Of a DNA stretch of 64,000 nucleotides, positions 10,196-17,365 are shown in pieces (positions within the stretch are counted from its first letter, which is position 1; each line of letters begins with the position of its first letter). The stretch spans positions 3,932-67,931 of the forward strand of contig JAJQCD010000010.1 in assembly GCA_021202925.1 (NCBI GenBank). Direction: 5' to 3'. The stretch comes from Clostridiales bacterium. GTDB lineage: Bacteria > Bacillota > Clostridia > Lachnospirales > Lachnospiraceae. The translations under genes and the position numbers were made by a program. Under the pieces are notes generated by a model, which did no database searches, was not told where the DNA came from, and worked only from the letters and a program-made list of their open reading frames with translations.

Positions 10196-10485
10196 TAACC
10201 AAAATTCTGGTTGAAAAAAATTGGCTGTTCCAGTGGCAGGGGTGTTGCGATAGGATAAGGGCGTAACAAAACAATGGATGACATCTTCAAGCCGAAGACA
10301 TAGGAATAGTACAATGACGGAATTGGAAAAGGCAAAGAGACAGTCATCTTGCAGGCAGGAAATTCATCTTGAAGCTTACTTAATCACTGACGGCGAACTC
10401 AAGATTACGGATTTCTTCTGGCGGAACTGAGTTGAGCTTTAGGATGACCTGCAACCGCTGATTGGCGGGGAAAGGGGTATGAACC

Positions 10486-12639
10486 TTGAAAACTAAAGAC
10501 GTGGGAACAAACGAAATTGCAGTAAATGTGGCGCAGACGAAACTGATGAAGCCCTTCCACAAGGAGAGTCAACCTTTGAAGCAGAGTCCTATTTATGATT
10601 GGCCTCCAAGTGAGAAGATCTGCCCAATTTATCCATGGGATTCAGGTCAGAAGGCAAATCCCATTGTTAATGCTGATGAACTATCAGGCAATTACCATGA
10701 CGATCCGTTTGAAGGTATGGAATCTGACCGATTTCGATCTAAGCTGGATGCTCATGGAGAGACAGAGACAGAAGCTTCTCAGGAAGAAGTGGCTCTGTCA
10801 TGTGTGTCGGAAGGTGAAATGGCGGAGGTCGTTGATGTGGTGAGCACTCCTGTTTATCCGGAATTAATTCCAAGTTATCAGGCACCAACATCGTATTCGA
10901 ACACATTGGCCGTCTTTAATCAATCGGAAACGAGGATTTATGGATCCCCCAAACAACCTGACGATGAAGATGAGAGAGGTGGCGAAAGCTTCGTCGCAAA
11001 TTACAAACTTGAACCGCTTCGCATGGAACAGGTGATTAATTGGCGTGGTGACGTCGATTATGAAAATTGTTTGATTCGGGTGCGAATTCGGATAACACTA
11101 AGATCTCGCGAAATCTGTCAGGAATTTACGATATTTTGGAAAGAGATCGAAAGTCTGGCACAGGTTGTTGCAAGGCGTTTCCCTATGGCTCGGGCGAGGA
11201 AGAAATTCTATTCGCAAATCGAAATGGAATTTCGTGAAAGCCTGGAATGTATTGCAACCATTAACTGCTACTGTGATCATGGGTGGCAGCTAATCGCTGG
11301 AAAACGCATGTACGTCCATCAGACGGCGAAGGGGATCCTGGGGATAATTACCACGACGCAGAATCTTCCAGCAACTTCTGGCGTTGGCATCCAGGAATGC
11401 TGTGGTATCTGGGAAGCGTCACGGTCGTTATATCGAGTATCCGGCACTTCGGCAATTTTGAGTGTGTCAGCGTTCCTTGGGGTCATGTATCGGATTTTTG
11501 ATGAGGCGGGCCATGCGCCACGTTTCTTACTGTTTCTGACAGGCAAGACAGGATCCTTCAAGACCGCAATCGGCAAAGTGTTATTCACGCAAGTCGAGGA
11601 GGAGCGATTCAGGGAGCAACCGAGGCGATTGGATTCGGATACTTTGACTTCGCTGGAACGGAGCATCGTCACCTGCGGGCGCGACACAACGAGGCTGATT
11701 GATGATTTTTCGCCGGCTCTGAATAGACAGAAGAAGGCGACGCTGGAAAACGCACTTGAGATGATCACCCGGATGGTTGGTGATGGGAGTTCGCGGAGTC
11801 GTTCGAACGGAAGTCTTGAGGATAGACGAGGAGAAGGTGTTCGAGGGTTCGTAGTCGTTACTGGCGAGCTTCGCGGCAAGATTCTTTCATCGAATCTCAG
11901 GTGTCTTTATCTGACGATCGAGAAGGAGCACGTCAATTTAACACATCTAACATGGCTGCAGGAGAACAACGGAATGTATTGCGCTTTGATTCAGCATTTT
12001 ATCAATTATTTGTCGGATAATTGGGAGGGGATCGTTTCTTTTGTCCGAGAAAATTTCGATATCATGCGAAAAAAAGCGAGCAATATTTTACACACTGGTA
12101 GACTGGCGGATGCTCTTGCGATTCTGTGGTTGGCAACAGATATTCTGGCGGCTTTCTTTGAACGATGTGGTGAGACAGGGAGAGGAAATCTGTTCGAGCA
12201 GATGAAACGGGATATGATTTCTGTTTTTCTCGCCAGTGAGGCAATGGCGTATGAGGAAGATCCGACCGTCTCGTATATGTGTGCTCTTGAAACGCTGCTT
12301 GAGAATCAGGAACTGAATCTGAAAACTGGCCGATTTGGAGAAGAGGATCTGGAGAAGCTGGACGGCTTTGAGGCGGATGAATGCCTTTATCTGATGCCGT
12401 TACGCGTGTATCTGAAGGTGAAGAGCTGGATTCAGAAGGGCGGAGGAAGCTTTACACTGAGCGAAAAGGAGATCGTGACGGCTCTGGGTCAAGAGGGGTA
12501 TTTGGTTCCATCCTCAAATGGAAAAGAAAAGCGTACTTTTTATGCGAGAATTTTGATCGGTAAAAACCGCGTGAATTTTCTTCGAATACCACGATCTAAG
12601 TTGAGTGAGTTTGCGAGGACTGAGCCAGATTTTTTCTGA
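10486..12639 (+). CDS. DUF927/Cch-like AAA+ replicative helicase candidate
   Basis: Walker A GKTGSFKT, Walker B RLIDD, VVVTGE and SSNLRCL; preceded by HGWQ; located upstream of xis-int. No primase domain seen. Confidence 0.7.
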   Translation: MKTKDVGTNEIAVNVAQTKLMKPFHKESQPLKQSPIYDWPPSEKICPIYPWDSGQKANPIVNADELSGNYHDDPFEGMESDRFRSKLDAHGETETEASQEEVALSCVSEGEMAEVVDVVSTPVYPELIPSYQAPTSYSNTLAVFNQSETRIYGSPKQPDDEDERGGESFVANYKLEPLRMEQVINWRGDVDYENCLIRVRIRITLRSREICQEFTIFWKEIESLAQVVARRFPMARARKKFYSQIEMEFRESLECIATINCYCDHGWQLIAGKRMYVHQTAKGILGIITTTQNLPATSGVGIQECCGIWEASRSLYRVSGTSAILSVSAFLGVMYRIFDEAGHAPRFLLFLTGKTGSFKTAIGKVLFTQVEEERFREQPRRLDSDTLTSLERSIVTCGRDTTRLIDDFSPALNRQKKATLENALEMITRMVGDGSSRSRSNGSLEDRRGEGVRGFVVVTGELRGKILSSNLRCLYLTIEKEHVNLTHLTWLQENNGMYCALIQHFINYLSDNWEGIVSFVRENFDIMRKKASNILHTGRLADALAILWLATDILAAFFERCGETGRGNLFEQMKRDMISVFLASEAMAYEEDPTVSYMCALETLLENQELNLKTGRFGEEDLEKLDGFEADECLYLMPLRVYLKVKSWIQKGGGSFTLSEKEIVTALGQEGYLVPSSNGKEKRTFYARILIGKNRVNFLRIPRSKLSEFARTEPDFF

Positions 12640-12664
12640 CATTTCAGAAACGATACATCCTTTG

Positions 12665-12691
12665 TCGGCATATTTTAATGTGGTATGCCGA
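12665..12691 (+). other. Stem-loop just upstream of the intron-like RNA
   Basis: TCGGCATA (12665-72) pairs with TATGCCGA (12684-91); ATGTGGTATGC occurs twice (12678-88, 12691-701). Confidence 0.6.
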
Positions 12692-12697
12692 TGTGGT

Positions 12698-12917
12698 ATG
12701 CGCCGGGCATGGCTCAGTTCTAACTGGTGAAAGTCCAGTTATGGGTAACTTACCGTCCATGTAGTTAAACGCAAGGCGGCAATCCCGTTGTCAGTGACAG
12801 TGACGAAAGTAAATCAGATACTGTGAGGATGGATTAATTACTATGGGCTTGGAAGTATGAAGGTCTTTATACACAATGCAACGGGAGAGGCGAGACATTA
12901 GCCTCCCTCTACCCTAT
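12698..12917 (+). ncRNA. Miniature ORF-less group IIC intron-derived RNA
   Basis: 5' ATGCGCCGGGCATGG, hairpin TAACTGG-TGAAAGT-CCAGTTA, AACGCAAGG, stem GTAGTTAA/TTAATTAC, and a 3' domain VI-like stem GGGAGAGG/CCTCT-A-CCC ending in TAT. Domain Id, DII-IV and canonical DV are absent. Confidence 0.65.
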
Positions 12918-12937
12918 TTTTGGAGGGAGGTGATATC

Positions 12938-13129
12938 ATGCAGAAACAAAGCATTCCGCTGACAGAAAAACGGCTGTTATCCGTTCCCGAGTTTCAGGCT
13001 TATGCGAGTATTGGCCGGAACAACGCATTTCGGTTGATCCGTCAAGCTGATTGCGAGGTGCGTATCGGACGCAGGGTCTTTGCGGATCGCGTTCGGTTCG
13101 ACGCCTGGTGTAGCGCACAACACGGATGA
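12938..13129 (+). CDS. xis: Excisionase-like DNA-binding protein
   Basis: 63 aa, RLLSVPEFQAYASIGRNNAFRLI...VRIGRRVFADR; GGAGGGAGG RBS; directly upstream of the integrase. Confidence 0.8.
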   Translation: MQKQSIPLTEKRLLSVPEFQAYASIGRNNAFRLIRQADCEVRIGRRVFADRVRFDAWCSAQHG

Positions 13130-13201
13130 AATGACATAGACAACGGAGGGGGATGGAGCGACCATCCCTCTTATTGAAATATTAGAAAGAAGGAATTATC
13201 A

Positions 13202-14356
13202 ATGACAACAAAAGATATAAAAAAGCTTCCGAAAGGAATCACGCTTCGATCAGATGGTTACTATTTAGGACGGGTATCCTACTTTGGGGAAAGATATTCT
13301 CTGTATGACAGAGATCTGAAAACACTTCAAAGGCGGTTGAATGACTTGCGTTACGAACTGGAGCACGGGCTATATGCGAAAAAATCCCAGCTTACGATTG
13401 ACGACTGGTTCCGAACCTGGATTAGAGAATATAAATCAATGACCGTCAAGCAGGGGACGGTTGGCGTATACGAGGATACGTATCGTGCATATATCAAAGA
13501 TGCTTTGGGCAGGAAGAAGTTAAAGGATCTGAGGCCGGAACAGATTCAGGCTCTCTATAATAAGCTGAATCTTGACGGCTATTCGCACAGTACGATTGAA
13601 CTGGTGTCCGTGGTCCTCGGAGGTCTGTACAAACAGGCTTACAAAAACCAGCTGATTCAGAAGAATCCCGTTCCGTTGGCAACACTTCCGAAAGCGGTCG
13701 ATACTGTGAGGCAACGTGTTCTGACGGCAGAGGAACAGGAAATATTCTTACAGATTGCCAGAAAGCGTAAATACAGTCTGGCTTATGAGCTGGCGTTGTC
13801 GACGGGAATGCGAAGTGGCGAGGTTCGTGGTCTGCGTTGGGAAGATATTGATTTTGACAAGAGGCTAATCCATGTAACCGGTACATTGGTACAGAATCGA
13901 TATGGTTTTTACCGCGATCTGCCAAAGACGAAGAGTAGCCTTCGGGATATTCCGATGTTAGACAATGTGTATCAGTTGCTCGAAAAGTGGCGGGAAGAAC
14001 AGTCGGAGCGAAGGAATATGCTTGGCGCAGACTGGCGAGCAACAGAAGAATTTAAGGATCTGGTGGTCGCGACAGACATGGGTGCGCCGTTAGGTAAGAG
14101 TTATCTTAATAAGGGCATTAAGACGATCATCAAGCATATTGAGTCGGAGACAGAGAAACCATTTGAGTACATCACGTTTCATGGCCTGAGACATACTTTC
14201 GCGACCAGATGTATCGAAAATGGAATGGAACCTCAGGTATTGAAAGCGATTATGGGACATTCTAAACTGTCAATGACGATGGATCTGTATGCACATGTAT
14301 TGCCAGATGCAAAGTTAAAGGAAATGGAAAAAATCGCTGGGCTGTTTGAAAAATAA
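13202..14356 (+). CDS. int: Tyrosine integrase
   Basis: STGMRSGE (catalytic R), FHGLRHTFATR, MGHS...MDLYAH; N-terminal arm-binding and SAM-like regions. Confidence 0.95.
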   Translation: MTTKDIKKLPKGITLRSDGYYLGRVSYFGERYSLYDRDLKTLQRRLNDLRYELEHGLYAKKSQLTIDDWFRTWIREYKSMTVKQGTVGVYEDTYRAYIKDALGRKKLKDLRPEQIQALYNKLNLDGYSHSTIELVSVVLGGLYKQAYKNQLIQKNPVPLATLPKAVDTVRQRVLTAEEQEIFLQIARKRKYSLAYELALSTGMRSGEVRGLRWEDIDFDKRLIHVTGTLVQNRYGFYRDLPKTKSSLRDIPMLDNVYQLLEKWREEQSERRNMLGADWRATEEFKDLVVATDMGAPLGKSYLNKGIKTIIKHIESETEKPFEYITFHGLRHTFATRCIENGMEPQVLKAIMGHSKLSMTMDLYAHVLPDAKLKEMEKIAGLFEK

Positions 14357-14484
14357 GAATGGAACATGCGCAGAGGTTGGTAAAACACTGGATGATAACT
14401 GTCAAAAGTAAAGGATGGCAGAGCAGAGGAGAAGGTAAGTGTTTCCTCTACTTTGCCATTTTAAGTGTGAAAAGAGTTTCATAT

Positions 14485-14916
14485 TCACGGAGATTGCACG
14501 CCAGGATCATCTTGGCTCTTTGACAGTCTCTTTTCCACATAATTTGATACGCCGTCAAAAAATAAATGTGCCTGACTGATCTGATCTTCAACGTCAACCT
14601 TTGATATGACATAATAATCATCATAATCAGATTCTGTTCTGACTTCAAAGGCTTTGGTTAGAATCTTGGAATACTCTTTTTCAAAGATTCCAGACCGGAC
14701 ATAGTTTTTCTGGAAATAAGCCATCACACCTGCGTGTTTAGAAAAATCAATTCCGTCTAATGCAAGTATACTTCTAATGCAGTGAAAAATACTATAATAG
14801 GATCGATTGGCAGCACTGCAATAGTCTCCTGAATTTAAAAGGATTTTGGCTGATTCGAGACATTGCGCCGATTTTTCCAGGCGATATTTGCATAAGGCTA
14901 TCTTCCTATCATCCAT
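14485..14916 (-). CDS. HEPN domain protein, partner of the MNT
   Basis: AANRSYYSIFH, SKHAGV and RTESDY; overlaps the MNT stop codon. Confidence 0.9.
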   Translation of the reverse strand: MDDRKIALCKYRLEKSAQCLESAKILLNSGDYCSAANRSYYSIFHCIRSILALDGIDFSKHAGVMAYFQKNYVRSGIFEKEYSKILTKAFEVRTESDYDDYYVISKVDVEDQISQAHLFFDGVSNYVEKRLSKSQDDPGVQSP

Positions 14917-15262
14917 AGATTGCTACCCCTTCTTTCACTACATTTTGATAGAACGGAAGGAAATCCTGATTTTCCTCAAAGTGTTTCCGATCTCTTAATA
15001 TAATTGACACGAAGATTCCTTCATCAAGAGAAATGTCGCTGGCCATTTCAGATGTCCTGTCGCGCAGCTTCCTGATTTCGTTCTGGTCACAGTCTAGCAA
15101 TATCATGATATCAATATCAGATTCGTCGGTATGATCCCCTCTGGCATAGGAGCCATACAGAATAATCCGATCAAGTTGGTTCCCATAAATTTTTCTGGAT
15201 TCTTCTTTTATTCTTCCCAATACGCTCTGCAATTCAGCATTGTTACATTCGTGATTCTCCAT
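14909..15262 (-). CDS. Minimal nucleotidyltransferase (MNT)
   Basis: LYGSYARGDHTDESDIDIM motif (GSxxxG..DxD). Confidence 0.92.
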   Translation of the reverse strand: MENHECNNAELQSVLGRIKEESRKIYGNQLDRIILYGSYARGDHTDESDIDIMILLDCDQNEIRKLRDRTSEMASDISLDEGIFVSIILRDRKHFEENQDFLPFYQNVVKEGVAIYG

Positions 15263-15527
15263 AAAGCAAAATTCCTTCCTACTACAATATATTTATGGGG
15301 GTAGATGCCTTACATTCAGTAAGGTTCTTCTCCATCTTGTTGCTTAAGCTGTTATAATGATGGAGCAATCGGTATATCGGCTTTCTTCCCTGGACTGTTT
15401 TATATTTTTTTAGGGCATTGTTTGGGCATGATAGTTAAAGGGTGATTTATAACCGACAACAATTCTCTGGTCGTCTGGTTACCATTATACACGGAAAAGT
15501 TTTCAAATACAACTATGGAAATCAGGC

Positions 15528-15737
15528 AGAAGACATGATATTTAAGTAAGAAAGTGATGAAGATAGGGAACTGAGTCAGAATCCCTATACACCATTTTCC
15601 ACACCAAAATATTACACCATTGTAAATCAGAATAAATTCCTGAACTCGAAAAGAGGCAGTAAATATCACGATTTAAATCTGTATAACCTTGTGAAAAACA
15701 GGCAGAGATTAACCTCCCCTTTTTAATCGGTTCCGGC
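15528..15737. repeat. 210-bp direct repeat, copy A
   Basis: Aligns along its length with 17524-17733 (agaagacatgatatttaagtaa...gagattaacct...tccggc) with scattered substitutions. Confidence 0.9.
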
Positions 15738-15777
15738 GCGATGGACGTGTTGGGGCCGATTTTTTTGCCCGGCATGC

Positions 15778-15808
15778 TCCAGAACCTGCCAGAGACAGGT
15801 TCTGGAGT
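15778..15808. terminator. Perfect 12-bp hairpin
   Basis: ctccagaacctg-ccagaga-caggttctggag. Confidence 0.55.
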
Positions 15809-15837
15809 TAAGTAAAATAAAGGGTTCTCGGAGATTA

Positions 15838-15982
15838 CATTTCCCGCTCACTTTTGTGAAGTTTTTTTAGACTCAACATCTGACTGGATGTTCAATCCCG
15901 ACAGCTTAATAATCTCCGGCAGCACCTGGTAGATGGAGAAGGTATTGAATTCGTCCAGCCATTCCTCAGGCAAATCAGGAAC
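15838..15982 (-). pseudogene. Fragment of a siphophage tail-assembly chaperone gene
   Basis: VPDLPEEWLDEFNTFSIYQVLPEIIKLSGLNIQSDVESKK followed by an A7 tract and a shifted frame KLHKSEREM; resembles Clostridia phage TAC genes as recalled from memory. Confidence 0.6.
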
Positions 15983-16059
15983 CTTGCCTGGTAATCAGCA
16001 CGATATGGATGTCTTTTGAGGTCGCAATTTGCGACCTCAAACATTATCAGAACTATTAC

Positions 16060-16395
16060 TGAGCAATCAGAACCGGCTTTGATAATAAACACAAAATTCG
16101 TTGTATCCAGATGGCTCGATATCAGATAATCCGCTTTTATCATTGTGGTAAATGGATACATACGGGGCATATAGGAAAAGAACGAAAAATCTTTTTCGAT
16201 AATATCCTTTAAACGAGTCAAGGCTTCAAGACGGGGTTTTACGAGATTCTCGTACTGTTCACCTTTAGTGATTTGCTCGAATGTAATTTTATGGTTAAGG
16301 ATTCGATCCACGGTTTTACGCGGATTGTACCTCGGCAAGGATAAATCCCGTAAATATTGAAATCCTGCAAGATGAGGAAAATCCTCCAATCTGAA
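16060..16395 (-). pseudogene. Truncated PBECR4-like nuclease gene
   Basis: FRLEDFPHLAGFQYLRDL and FTTMIKADYLI motifs; in-frame TGA at 16398-16396 and no N-terminus; the C-terminus runs into unrelated sequence. Confidence 0.6.
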
Positions 16396-17125
16396 TCAGT
16401 ACCACCGGCTTAGCCGGTGGTTTGATTTTCGCCCTATAAGGGCTCGTTCCCGGCGCAAGGGTCTAAAGACCCGCTGAGTAGTTCGCCAGCCGCAACATCA
16501 GTTACTTGCTAAGCCCCCTGGGCTCACTTTTTATTGCTTTTCATTACCGGCTCACCCGTAAACGGGTCAATATACTCTTTTAAAGACATCTGATCATATT
16601 CCAAATCTTCTTTCAGCTGATTTCGAATATACTCTTCAATCTTTTTTGCATTTTTCCCTACAGTATCCACATAATAGCCTCTGCACCAGAAATGCCTGTT
16701 TCCATACTTATATTTAAGGTTTGCATGTCGCTCAAATATCATAAGTGTACTTTTACCCTTTAAATACCCCACAAATTCCGATACACTCATCTTAGGCGGA
16801 ATCTCTACCAACATATGCACATGATCTGGGCATATCTCCGCTTCGATTATGTTTACTTCTTTGCGCTTACATAGCATACTTAAAATATTGGCAATATCCT
16901 GCTTCAACTCACCATATATTATTTTTCTTCTAAATTTAGGTGCAAAGACAATATGGTACTTACAATTCCACGTCGTATGTGATAAAGTATTCTTGTCCAT
17001 TCGGACGACCTCCTTTGATTAATAAAACGGTTGGCGAACCTTTTTTTATTATATCACTGGAGGTTTTTTACACATCGCTGAAGCTATCCCAACCACCCGC
17101 ATAGCAGGTGGTTTTTTTGTTCTCC
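16395..17125 (-). mobile_element. IS200/IS605-family element, tnpA only (ends approximate)
   Basis: Subterminal hairpins ACCACCGGCTTAGCCGGTGGT (16401-16421) and ACCACCCGCATAGCAGGTGGT (17093-17113) flank tnpA. Confidence 0.85.
16524..17000 (-). CDS. tnpA: IS200-like Y1 HUH transposase
   Basis: CKYHIVFAPKFRRK, PDHVHMLV (HUH), FWCRGYYVDTVG and EEYIRNQ (catalytic Tyr). Confidence 0.96.
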   Translation of the reverse strand: MDKNTLSHTTWNCKYHIVFAPKFRRKIIYGELKQDIANILSMLCKRKEVNIIEAEICPDHVHMLVEIPPKMSVSEFVGYLKGKSTLMIFERHANLKYKYGNRHFWCRGYYVDTVGKNAKKIEEYIRNQLKEDLEYDQMSLKEYIDPFTGEPVMKSNKK

Positions 17126-17189: not shown

Positions 17190-17365
17190 AAAAAGAAAGA
17201 GCCTTGCCATTGCAAGGCTCTCACTCAAGCGTTTTCATTCGATTCCGGGGAATCTAGTCGGCTTGTGGTAACCGCATAACCCACGGGCTGGCTCCACAGA
17301 TGGCTGCATTCCGACACAGTCAACTGTTTCATCACCACGATAGCTGGTCATCGCCGCTATCCTCT
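17190..17365 (-). ncRNA. Candidate ~175-nt structured sRNA
   Basis: Own promoter and 10-bp terminator stem (17198-17221, then TTCTTTTT); internal stems GATAGC/GCTATC, GTCGG/CCGAC and GATTC/GAATC. Confidence 0.55.

Follow-up and report, generated by a model that had tools for sequence, protein, structure and literature searches.

The window, a stretch of 64,000 nt, contains an integrative element in which genes for a putative replicative helicase, a putative excisionase (xis) and an integrase (int) follow each other on the + strand. The helicase (717 aa, 10486..12639) has no Pfam match of its own. Its relatives, which share at most 47% identity with it, gave faint DUF927 or weak nSTAND3 matches and have the same helicase-xis-int order. 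The xis gene (12938..13129) encodes a small HTH protein of 63 aa, for which the matches to HTH_17 (14 bits) and Tn916-Xis (12.8 bits) stayed below threshold. Its putative assignment is based on size and on synteny with the HTH_17/Tn916-Xis genes of the relatives, one of which it matched in BLASTP (E 0.005). The tyrosine integrase of the element (13202..14356) matched Phage_integrase (105.6 bits), a SAM-like domain (43.9 bits) and the phrog_1 integrase (E 8e-74).

Between the helicase gene on the 5' exon side and xis on the 3' exon side lies an insert of 220 nt (12698-12917, + strand). Judged by its sequence, the insert is descended from a class C (IIC) group II intron. Very probably, the 220 nt before the excisionase gene are a non-functional fossil of such an intron, hollowed out internally. 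The helicase-xis spacer measures 298 nt (78 nt minus the insert), versus 84, 1, 35, 10 and 5 nt in five related elements, which were gathered via homologous helicase proteins and the contigs encoding them. None of the five helicase-xis-int elements has such an insert in this spacer. A search of the genome contig collection with the 717-aa helicase returned no related loci, and a helicase search of 401 genomes of the family found one distant relative. The first-pass annotation had proposed that an intron scaffold was repurposed here as a cis-regulator of excision and integration; recurrence upstream of xis-int was not found, the five related elements being free of the insert.

Behind the helicase gene, folding revealed the target hairpin of the intron insertion (12663..12693, + strand), the geometry of which is shared by 14/14 relatives. 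Its core of 8 bp (TCGGCATA at 12665-72 and TATGCCGA at 12684-91) extends to 12 bp if G-U pairs are included, and its fold (-17.3 kcal/mol, z about -3.9) was matched by 0 of 200 shuffles. The remnant starts 4-6 nt past the hairpin; the spacing in the relatives is 3-7 nt (14/14), so that an upstream hairpin is documented in all 14 cases for the intron family of the source genome. The first base of the 3' exon is a T at all junctions. IIC introns insert at terminator motifs (PMC4424553), and the remnant likewise lies a few nt past a terminator-like hairpin and in sense orientation, with helicase, xis and int on the same strand. A group IIC origin behind a stem-loop had been proposed before. The 8-bp stem-loop indeed ends 6 nt before A12698, and homology to full-length introns, together with the 14/14 hairpin geometry, bears this origin out. 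An alternative 5' boundary at G12693 (GUGGU...) fitted the GUGYG consensus and the hairpin spacing worse than 12698 and was rejected.

In the empty site, defined as the hairpin followed directly by TTTTGGAGGGAGG, the hairpin and the T-run at 12918-21 would give a terminator-like motif. In a promoter/terminator scan of 10200-14600, domain VI (DVI) of the remnant and the T-run gave no terminator call, and promoter and terminator counts were at shuffle level. A promoter-like site within the remnant (12794-12822, 9/12) was not taken as evidence of function.

Three intron-derived segments

The insert is made up of three segments, the boundaries of which were taken from BLAST, tblastn and MAFFT; a global nucleotide alignment in which gap extension was cheap broke the middle into too many pieces. 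Segment A (12698..12778, + strand; 3' boundary uncertain within 12777-12799) corresponds to the intron 5' terminus and the first ~80 nt of domain I. It begins with AUGCG, in which G1 is mutated to A, and contains a CUGG-UGAAAGU-CCAG hairpin. In BLAST, segment A was about 91% identical over 53 nt to a copy of the family at a contig end of the same genome (C23) and 74-87% identical to introns of other genomes. In a MAFFT alignment it diverges from seven relatives past AACGCAAGG. The motifs by which the first-pass annotation had recognized this part, ATGCGCCGGGCATGG at 12698-12712, TAACTGG-TGAAAGT-CCAGTTA at 12721-12741 and AACGCAAGG at 12768-12776, are all placed correctly.

Segment C (12877..12917, + strand) comprises J5/6 (AAC) and domain VI, with a bulged A12911 and the 3' end ...CCCUAU; domain V (DV), located ahead of it in full-length copies, is absent. 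In domain VI, GGGAGAGG at 12883-90 pairs with CCTCT-A-CCC at 12906-14. The hairpin folds with -16.5 kcal/mol (z -4.05), and a terminal AT is located at 12916-17. Thus, the bulged branch-point A lies at -7, within the 7-8 nt from an ...AY 3' end that characterize domain VI. Segment C is 95-96% identical to intron 3' ends at two further contig ends of the same genome (C25 and C36) and shares homology with the DVI portion of the RF00029 match in relative L033. The survival of the 5' terminus, the first domain I hairpins and a bulged-A domain VI ending in AU, as claimed earlier, was confirmed. The similarity of the two ends to full-length introns is above chance, with BLAST E-values of 1e-14 within the source genome and as low as 4e-20 elsewhere.

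The middle of the insert had been described as ORF-less. This is only partly correct: the centre contains a recognizable piece of the intron ORF. Segment B (12779..12868, + strand; boundaries uncertain by ~10-20 nt on each side) is a remnant of the maturase/X domain of the intron-encoded protein (IEP) gene. Its ~28 codons, interrupted in frame by a TGA (12824-26), translate to AIPLSVTVTKVNQIL*GWINYYGLGSMK. The maturase profile GIIM (PF08388) exceeded its cut-off of 23 bits both in a scan of the genome (27.9 bits) and on the translated piece (29.4 bits, E 7.8e-7), and the IEPs of two full-length relatives matched segment B in tblastn (E 2e-10 and 5e-11). The segment encodes GWINYY, and the TGA replaces the Arg found in the RGWINY of the relatives. 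Nucleotide matches of 12799-12861 lie inside the ORFs of other introns. The three blocks (5' end, ORF and 3' end) are collinear with full-length introns of two other genomes, G124 (1,653 nt) and G089 (1,883 nt).

These data do not agree with the idea of a miniature scaffold, since what fills the middle third is left over from the maturase gene and contains a stop codon; the maturase codons show where the apparent scaffold came from. Two long-range stems had been proposed to close it, GTAGTTAA (12761-68) with TTAATTAC (12834-41) and GCTCA (12712-16) with TGGGC (12844-48). Their coordinates are correct, but they are not above chance, and the 3' strand of each is part of the maturase coding sequence (ATT AAT TAC TAT GGG CTT = I N Y Y G L). 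Since the middle is a maturase remnant, the proposed stems represent chance complementarity. A special fold of the whole 220 nt was likewise not observed (z -1.27; 19/200 shuffles as good).

Lost parts, resident copies and proposed history

Relative to full-length introns, two internal deletions of ~1.3 kb and ~0.3 kb have occurred, which correspond to about nt 81-1421 and 1509-1839 in the numbering of the 1,883-nt relative. Since the parent copy is absent from the assembly, the deletion junctions can be placed only with an accuracy of 10-20 nt. About 80% of domain I (with the exon-binding sites), domains II-IV, the reverse transcriptase (RT), the maturase C-terminus and the catalytic domain V are gone; left are intron nt ~1-80, ~28 maturase codons with a stop, and J5/6 with domain VI. 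The loss of domain V is visible at the 3' end, where full-length copies read ...ACCGTACGTCCGGTGCAACGGGAG and the remnant reads ...TATACACAATGCAACGGGAG, and the sequence preceding J5/6 is unlike the DV 3' strand of the copies residing in the same genome. The 5' terminus is AUGCG versus GUG[UC]G in 14/14 relatives, A1 being unique to the remnant. In the 1,883-nt relative the frame stays open over 440 codons (about 434 aa if counted from the first Met), versus ~28 codons here. Of the features of a functional IIC intron, the GUGYG start, domain V, a complete domain I with domains II-IV and an RT/maturase ORF are all missing. The first-pass annotation had already listed the loss of domain V, of the exon-binding part of domain I and of domains II-IV as well as the change of G1 (a G in 14/14 relatives), and its view that self-splicing is unlikely was upheld. 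With these catalytic parts missing, the remnant appears unable to self-splice.

The covariance models gave a corresponding picture. The expected similarity to group II intron families was in part recovered: the sole Rfam match at the locus was a weak one to group-II-D1D4-4 (RF02003; 21.3 bits, E 0.013), below the gathering score of 49 bits. RF00029 and RF02001, and likewise RF01998, remained without a match in 12500-13100 when E-values of up to 10 were admitted. At gathering thresholds, the scan of the whole window returned nothing at the remnant locus. The full-length relative of 1,653 nt, for comparison, scored 109.9 bits with RF02001, 41.1 bits with RF00029 and 29.7 bits with RF01998.

Related intron copies break the assembly of the source genome at three contig ends, one with the 5' end (C23) and two with the 3' end (C25 and C36); at 91-96% identity they are the closest matches to the ends of the remnant. 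The interior of the repeat is unassembled, and RVT_1 had no match anywhere in the assembly. Full-length copies that form unresolved repeats at three contig ends could raise the suspicion that a short-read assembler collapsed a full-length intron to a 220-nt chimera. However, the remnant differs from the contig-end copies at 6/53 and 2/41 positions and was thus not assembled from their reads. It is located 16 kb inside a 361-kb contig, and a collapse would not yield an in-frame ORF remnant between unique junction sequences. We regard the probability of such an artefact as practically negligible. Two further intron remnants exist in the same genome, one consisting of DVI only (C13) and one of DV and DVI only (C14). 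Intron decay is common in the source genome, and in bacteria the majority of intron copies have been truncated or inactivated (PMC4424553).

The history of the locus could be as follows. A full-length intron of ~1.9 kb would have retro-inserted in sense orientation 4-6 nt past the hairpin that follows the helicase gene, a standard IIC target. Two internal stretches would then have been lost, either by template jumps of the RT during insertion or by DNA deletions afterwards. In its present state the remnant would neither splice nor move, would lack a binding site for any helper protein, and its 220 nt would be carried along passively between helicase and xis. This striking non-coding stretch of intron type would hence be a decayed retroelement and not a new RNA class, which mainly tidies the annotation. 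It would also provide a clean case of internal gutting, in which a IIC intron lost its interior and retained both termini.

Relation to known group II introns

Examples of IIC introns are O.i.I1 of Oceanobacillus iheyensis and GsI-IIC. The class properties used for comparison were taken from PMC4424553 and PMC4748821. The remnant resembles IIC introns in its 5' end (xUGCGCCGGGCAUGG), the GGUGAAAGUCC hairpin, the bulged A 7 nt from an ...AU end, the sense insertion behind a hairpin and the homology to full-length introns that are positive for RF00029 and RF02001. Unlike working IIC introns, it is devoid of domains II-V, ~80% of domain I and the RT, and has an A at position 1. A close parallel is FRE652 of Sinorhizobium, an RmInt1-related remnant (PMC4181065), which is also a dead intergenic piece near mobile-element genes with related copies in the genome. 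Fragments of this type and the remnant described here may incidentally influence neighbouring genes. In contrast to fragmented copies, the remnant retains both termini and lost its interior through two deletions.

The retention of both termini and of a bulged-A domain VI, and the presence of close and presumably full-length relatives in the same genome, would also be consistent with a non-autonomous mini-intron that is spliced or mobilised in trans by the resident copies, in the manner of Euglena group III or TeI3 introns. Indeed, bacterial introns without an ORF can rely on IEPs supplied in trans (PMC4424553). The TeI3-type introns of Thermosynechococcus elongatus (PMC4424553) share with the remnant the lack of a functional IEP gene and the co-residence of related, presumably ORF-containing copies, although the assembly of the source genome contains no RT gene. 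However, several copies of TeI3-type introns exist and their ribozyme (DI-DVI) is intact, whereas the remnant is without catalytic core and a singleton; known trans-helped ORF-less introns retain the entire ribozyme. Domain V, the EBS part of domain I, J2/3 and the protein-binding site of domain IV are missing here, and G1 is an A. The group III introns of the Euglena chloroplast are superficially alike, being short RNAs with an intron-like 5' end and domain VI (PMC4424553), but they interrupt coding genes and are demonstrably spliced. The remnant has a mutated G1 and a maturase-ORF middle. Its exons are non-coding at the junction, and nothing therefore requires splicing. Furthermore, the ends differ by 5-11% from the resident copies, and the remnant is therefore not their recent product.

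A second copy, as might be expected of a unit acted on in trans, was not detected in the collections searched. The plasmid collection contained no match to the remnant, 301 genomes of the family contained no whole-length match, and the exact junction 33-mer had 0 matches in the metagenome collection. A gapped pattern (GGTGAAAGTCC-N76-106-TGGATNAAYTAYTAYGG) had 0 matches in genome, metagenome and viral contig collections, from which the genome of the window itself may be excluded. In the phage collection, only the 5' 81 nt were matched, by a full-length intron from a faecal phage record without annotation. By sequence search the remnant is a singleton in all these collections, with one copy in its genome, and we consider splicing or mobilisation in trans very improbable. 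Taken together, the intron-derived ends, the ORF middle, the losses and the singleton status leave both the repurposed-scaffold and the trans-acted reading unsupported.

Predicted pairing with the xis ribosome-binding site

The Shine-Dalgarno (SD) sequence of xis is located 5 nt downstream of the remnant. Folding predicted an alternative hairpin (12901..12931, + strand) in which positions 12901-10 of the DVI 3' strand (GCCUCCCUCU) are paired to positions 12922-31 in the SD region of xis (GGAGGGAGGU). This hairpin has -18.3 kcal/mol and is the MFE form in a 70-nt context (-23.7). The predicted probability of an unpaired SD was 0.004 with the insert and 0.31 for the joined flanks, which reconstruct the empty site. 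For 30 shuffles of the insert it was 0.36, and at least 0.11 in every one of them. Replacement of DVI by that of the resident copies, which differs by 2 nt, raised the value from 0.004 to 0.35. The two differences are both G-to-A changes that weaken domain VI. By this model, pairing of the SD with DVI could lower Xis translation. If true, the occlusion would mean less excision of the host element, and this is the sole biologically consequential possibility at the locus.

The strength of the predicted RBS occlusion (0.004) is an observation that speaks against a mere fossil. The two DVI-weakening G-to-A changes would likewise be compatible with selection for regulation.

A translational gate would account for both. 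The fossil would have been retained for its domain VI remnant, which would act as a two-state switch over the xis RBS: the DVI hairpin leaves the RBS free, and pairing of the DVI 3' strand with the SD closes it, so that Xis is kept low and the integrated element is stabilised. Strand 12901-12914 takes part in both hairpins, which are locally near iso-energetic (-16.5 and -18.3 kcal/mol), and the unpaired-SD values given above, including the effect of the DVI swap, are in line with a gate. However, the resident full-length copies have exactly the same anti-SD strand (GCCUCCCUCUACCCUAU), and its end CCCUCUACCCUAU is common to all intact 3' ends of the family that were examined. Hence this strand was not shaped for the xis site, and any strong GGAGG site beside the 3' end of this intron would pair likewise. 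Two substitutions cannot tell decay from selection, and the five related elements, with spacers of 1-84 nt, do without such a structure. We consider a gate of this kind, as suggested by equilibrium folding, unlikely. The fuller version of exaptation, in which bistable DVI/xis-SD hairpins set excisionase translation and the G-to-A changes were selected for this role, appears similarly doubtful; if it were correct, the bistable hairpins would in this way determine how often the integrative element is excised. Under the preferred reading of an internally hollowed intron fossil, the effect on the xis ribosome-binding site is predicted to be incidental, the pyrimidine-rich 3' strand of DVI being inherited from the intron family.

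An influence of a IIC intron on a downstream gene has a precedent. The outward promoters of IIC-attC introns were rejected as an analogy, as they are on the opposite strand and in domains absent here. The IIC-attC intron S.ma.I2 alters the expression of downstream integron cassettes (PMC3001079), and both cases represent IIC insertions between genes with a structure that affects the downstream gene, in the present case by prediction. While IIC-attC introns are full-length and antisense, impede transcription and contain internal outward promoters, the predicted effect here is SD occlusion by a sense DVI remnant.

Relationship of the mini to group II introns

The 220-nt stretch at 12698-12917 (plus strand; here called the mini) lies between a 717-aa helicase ORF (10486-12639) and a small ORF with its ATG at 12938. 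Every motif named in the first-pass annotation was recovered: ATGCGCCGGGCATGG at 12698-12712, the hairpin TAACTGG-TGAAAGT-CCAGTTA at 12721-12741, AACGCAAGG at 12768-12776, the complementary pairs 12761-68/12834-41 and 12712-16/12844-48, and a terminal hairpin, GGGAGAGG (12883-90)/CCTCT-A-CCC (12906-14), in which A12911 is the seventh base from the end (T12917). Upstream of the mini stands a stem-loop with an 8-bp core (12665-72/12684-91; 12663-12693 counting G-U pairs; -17.3 kcal/mol, z -3.9).

At gathering thresholds Rfam gave no match at the mini, and at permissive thresholds the sole match was group-II-D1D4-4 (21.3 bits, E 0.013, sub-threshold), centred on GGUGAAAGUCC. Positions 12699-12751 are 91% identical to the final 53 nt of contig C23 of the same genome (locus L003 1501-1553; C23:80392-80444), where a strong hairpin is followed after 7 nt by GTGTGCCGGGCATGG. 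Two further contigs, C25 (L002 1501-1546; C25:79043-79088) and C36 (L004 1501-1542; C36:56691-56732), end in sequence that is 95-96% identical to positions 12877-12922. These two ends read ACCGTACGTCCGGTGCAACGGGAGGGGCGAGGCATTAGCCTCCCTCTACCCTAT and continue into unrelated exons. About 53-59 nt of intron is present at each of the three contig ends; the RT-bearing interior is absent from the 39-contig assembly, in which no RVT_1 match was found. C23 carries a 5' junction, and C25 and C36 each a 3' junction, of an intron repeat left unresolved by short-read assembly; the resident copies are presumably full-length. Homology to these copies constitutes the decisive evidence for a group II descent of the mini.

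Pieces of the mini were found in 15 of the 301 same-family genomes scanned, always inside much longer elements, and are collinear with complete introns in two of these genomes, G124 (1,653 nt) and G089 (1,883 nt). The G124 intron (L033 1116-2768, minus strand; G124 contig C13) matches RF02001 with 109.9 bits and RF00029 (domains V-VI) with 41.1 bits. The G089 intron contains an open frame of 440 codons, about 434 aa when counted from its first Met, in which RT and X domains are present. The group II origin claimed for the mini was thus confirmed by homology to the own-genome copies and to those in G124 and G089. Against the resident copies the mini shows 6 differences over 53 positions and 2 over 41, and so is neither a recent product of those copies nor a chimera that the assembler made from them.

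Three collinear blocks and probable loss of intron function

The mini divides into three blocks in collinear order. The first, block A (12698 to about 12778), corresponds to the first ~80 nt of the intron; in an alignment with seven relatives it tracks them to the end of GTAGTTAAACGCAAGG and departs thereafter. Block B (about 12779-12868) is a remnant of the gene for the intron-encoded protein (IEP). Its in-frame translation reads AIPLSVTVTKVNQIL*GWINYYGLGSMK and scores higher than the cut-off of the Pfam maturase domain GIIM (27.9 bits in the genome scan; 29.4 bits alone, E 7.8e-7). Block B also aligned to the G124 and G089 IEPs (ARPLAVTIKRVNEMVRGWINYFRIGLMK; E 2e-10 and 5e-11, respectively), its TGA occupying the place of Arg in the RGWINY of the relatives. 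Block C (12877-12917) comprises J5/6 (AAC) and domain VI.

Numbered as in G089, what remains corresponds to about nt 1-80, 1422-1508 and 1840-1883, so about 1.34 kb and 0.33 kb were deleted from the interior of the intron. These two deletions took away the remainder of domain I with its EBS (exon-binding site) regions, domains II and III, the stem of domain IV, the RT, the C-terminal part of the maturase and domain V. Because the true parent intron is unassembled, the deletion junctions are placed only within 10-20 nt (12777-12799 and 12863-12877). Position 1 of the mini is A, while all 14 collected relatives start with GTG[TC]G. The long-range "closing stems" proposed earlier join block A to the maturase codons ATT AAT TAC TAT GGG CTT and are fortuitous, since their 3' strands are coding remnants; the whole 220 nt folds no better than shuffles (z -1.27). 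Of the initial interpretation, the anatomy stands in part, as does the predicted lack of self-splicing, whereas the middle, read as an RNA scaffold, proved to be the IEP gene remnant identified by GIIM and the IEP alignments.

Group II catalysis requires domain V and J2/3, and exon recognition requires EBS1 and EBS3 of domain I. Domain IVa is the IEP binding site, and G1 is part of 5' splice-site recognition. Each of these parts is missing or mutated in the mini. From established group II biology, it would be unable to function as an intron, either by itself or with help in trans. Where ORF-less bacterial introns rely on IEPs supplied in trans, they retain the full ribozyme (PMC4424553); in contrast, the mini is without domain V, the EBS regions and domains II-III.

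Internal decay appears to be routine in this intron family. The otherwise complete G124 intron is without about 100 N-terminal RT codons and is about 230 nt shorter than the G089 copy, and so is itself internally deleted. Two more intron scraps occur in the genome of the mini. One, from the same family and consisting of domain VI only, ends in GAGGCGAGGCGTTTAGCCTCCCTCTACCGTAT and is located on own-genome contig C13 (L005 1501-1534; C13:126352-126385). It ends 15 nt upstream of an ATG, and AAGGGGA in between is a possible ribosome-binding site. On contig C14 (L006 1501-1569; C14:81891-81959, minus strand) domains V and VI match RF00029 with 46.9 bits; neither an upstream D1-D4 match nor a neighbouring RT accompanies this piece, apparently the 3' remnant of a different group II intron.

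Insertion site and occurrence

The relatives provide 14 distinct 5' junctions, and in each of them the intron begins 3-7 nt past a stable hairpin, mostly with T residues after the hairpin; the first 3'-exon base is T at all 3' junctions seen. The geometry of the mini is the same (hairpin end 12691/12693, intron start 12698, 3' exon TTTTGG), and its joined flanks give a hairpin followed by TGTGGTTTTTGG, a terminator-like motif. Class C introns insert at intrinsic terminator motifs (PMC4424553; PMC4748821), and the mini shares this insertion behaviour behind a terminator-like hairpin. A 9-nt direct repeat, GTGGTATGC, was observed at 12680-12688 and 12693-12701. One copy (12680-12688) forms the 3' arm of the hairpin behind which the intron inserted; the other straddles the exon/intron boundary and takes in the mutated A1. 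Coincidence together with the G1-to-A change may account for the repeat, as may a minor conversion event.

The mini represents a solitary fossil from an already known class of retroelements. The plasmid collection gave no match to it, phage records matched only via the 5' end of a full-length intron, and no whole-length match was found in the 301 same-family genomes, which include the one other genome of the genus. The junction 33-mer gave 0 matches in the metagenome collection, as did GGTGAAAGTCC within 76-106 nt of TGGATNAAYTAYTAYGG in about 185,000 species genomes and the metagenome and viral collections. The helicase-xis spacers of five relatives with the order helicase, small HTH gene and integrase measure 84, 1, 35, 10 and 5 nt; that in the window measures 298 nt, or 78 nt minus the 220 nt. 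The mini had been suggested to be a cis-regulator or a unit acted on in trans. As far as the searches can show, it does not recur upstream of xis-int, and no second copy was found in the collections searched; both functions are unsupported.

The host element and predicted pairing at the xis Shine-Dalgarno

The genes around the mini mark an integrative element. Upstream genes encode DUF932, RadC, YqaJ exonuclease, Rad52-like and DUF5688 proteins, followed by a serine recombinase, a minus-strand orphan, the helicase, the putative xis, the tyrosine integrase int (13202-14356; Phage_integrase, 105.6 bits) and a HEPN/nucleotidyltransferase pair. The xis assignment derives from size and synteny and is weak at the sequence level (HTH_17 14 bits, Tn916-Xis 12.8 bits, both under cut-off). 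The host element is rare; the best identity to the helicase among 5.8 billion proteins is <=47%. This 717-aa protein founds a poorly annotated family (with L036, L038, L040, L043 and L035) showing faint DUF927 and weak nSTAND3 matches only. The order helicase, small HTH gene, tyrosine integrase is constant in this family, and the integrative elements concerned come from gut-type metagenomes. Immediately past int, on the minus strand (14485-17000), are the HEPN (73 bits) and nucleotidyltransferase (47 bits) pair, a fragment of a PBECR4 nuclease (15892-16389) and a Y1 transposase of the IS200-like type (16524-17000). A full-length drum RNA (RF02958, 98.3 bits, E 1e-17) lies at 17224-17337 on the minus strand.

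The xis Shine-Dalgarno (SD) region, GGAGGGAGGU (12922-31), has its complement in GCCUCCCUCU (12901-10), which forms the 3' strand of the domain VI hairpin. The SD-pairing hairpin (-18.3 kcal/mol, versus -16.5 for domain VI) is the predicted MFE form in context. The mean predicted probability of an unpaired SD is 0.004 with the insert, compared to 0.31 for the reconstructed empty site and 0.36 for 30 insert shuffles (minimum 0.11). The pyrimidine strand is inherited: the resident copies have it unchanged, and all intact family 3' ends examined share its CCCUCUACCCUAU end. The pairing was therefore not built for the xis site. Domain VI of the mini differs from that of the resident copies only by G-to-A substitutions at 12888 and 12895 (5' strand, apical stem), which weaken it from -22.2 to -16.5 kcal/mol and, by prediction, make the SD less accessible (0.004 in place of 0.35). 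As these two substitutions fit neutral decay and selection alike, we consider an adaptive "gate" on Xis translation quite improbable. A measurable passive effect of the mini on Xis translation is plausible from these predictions.
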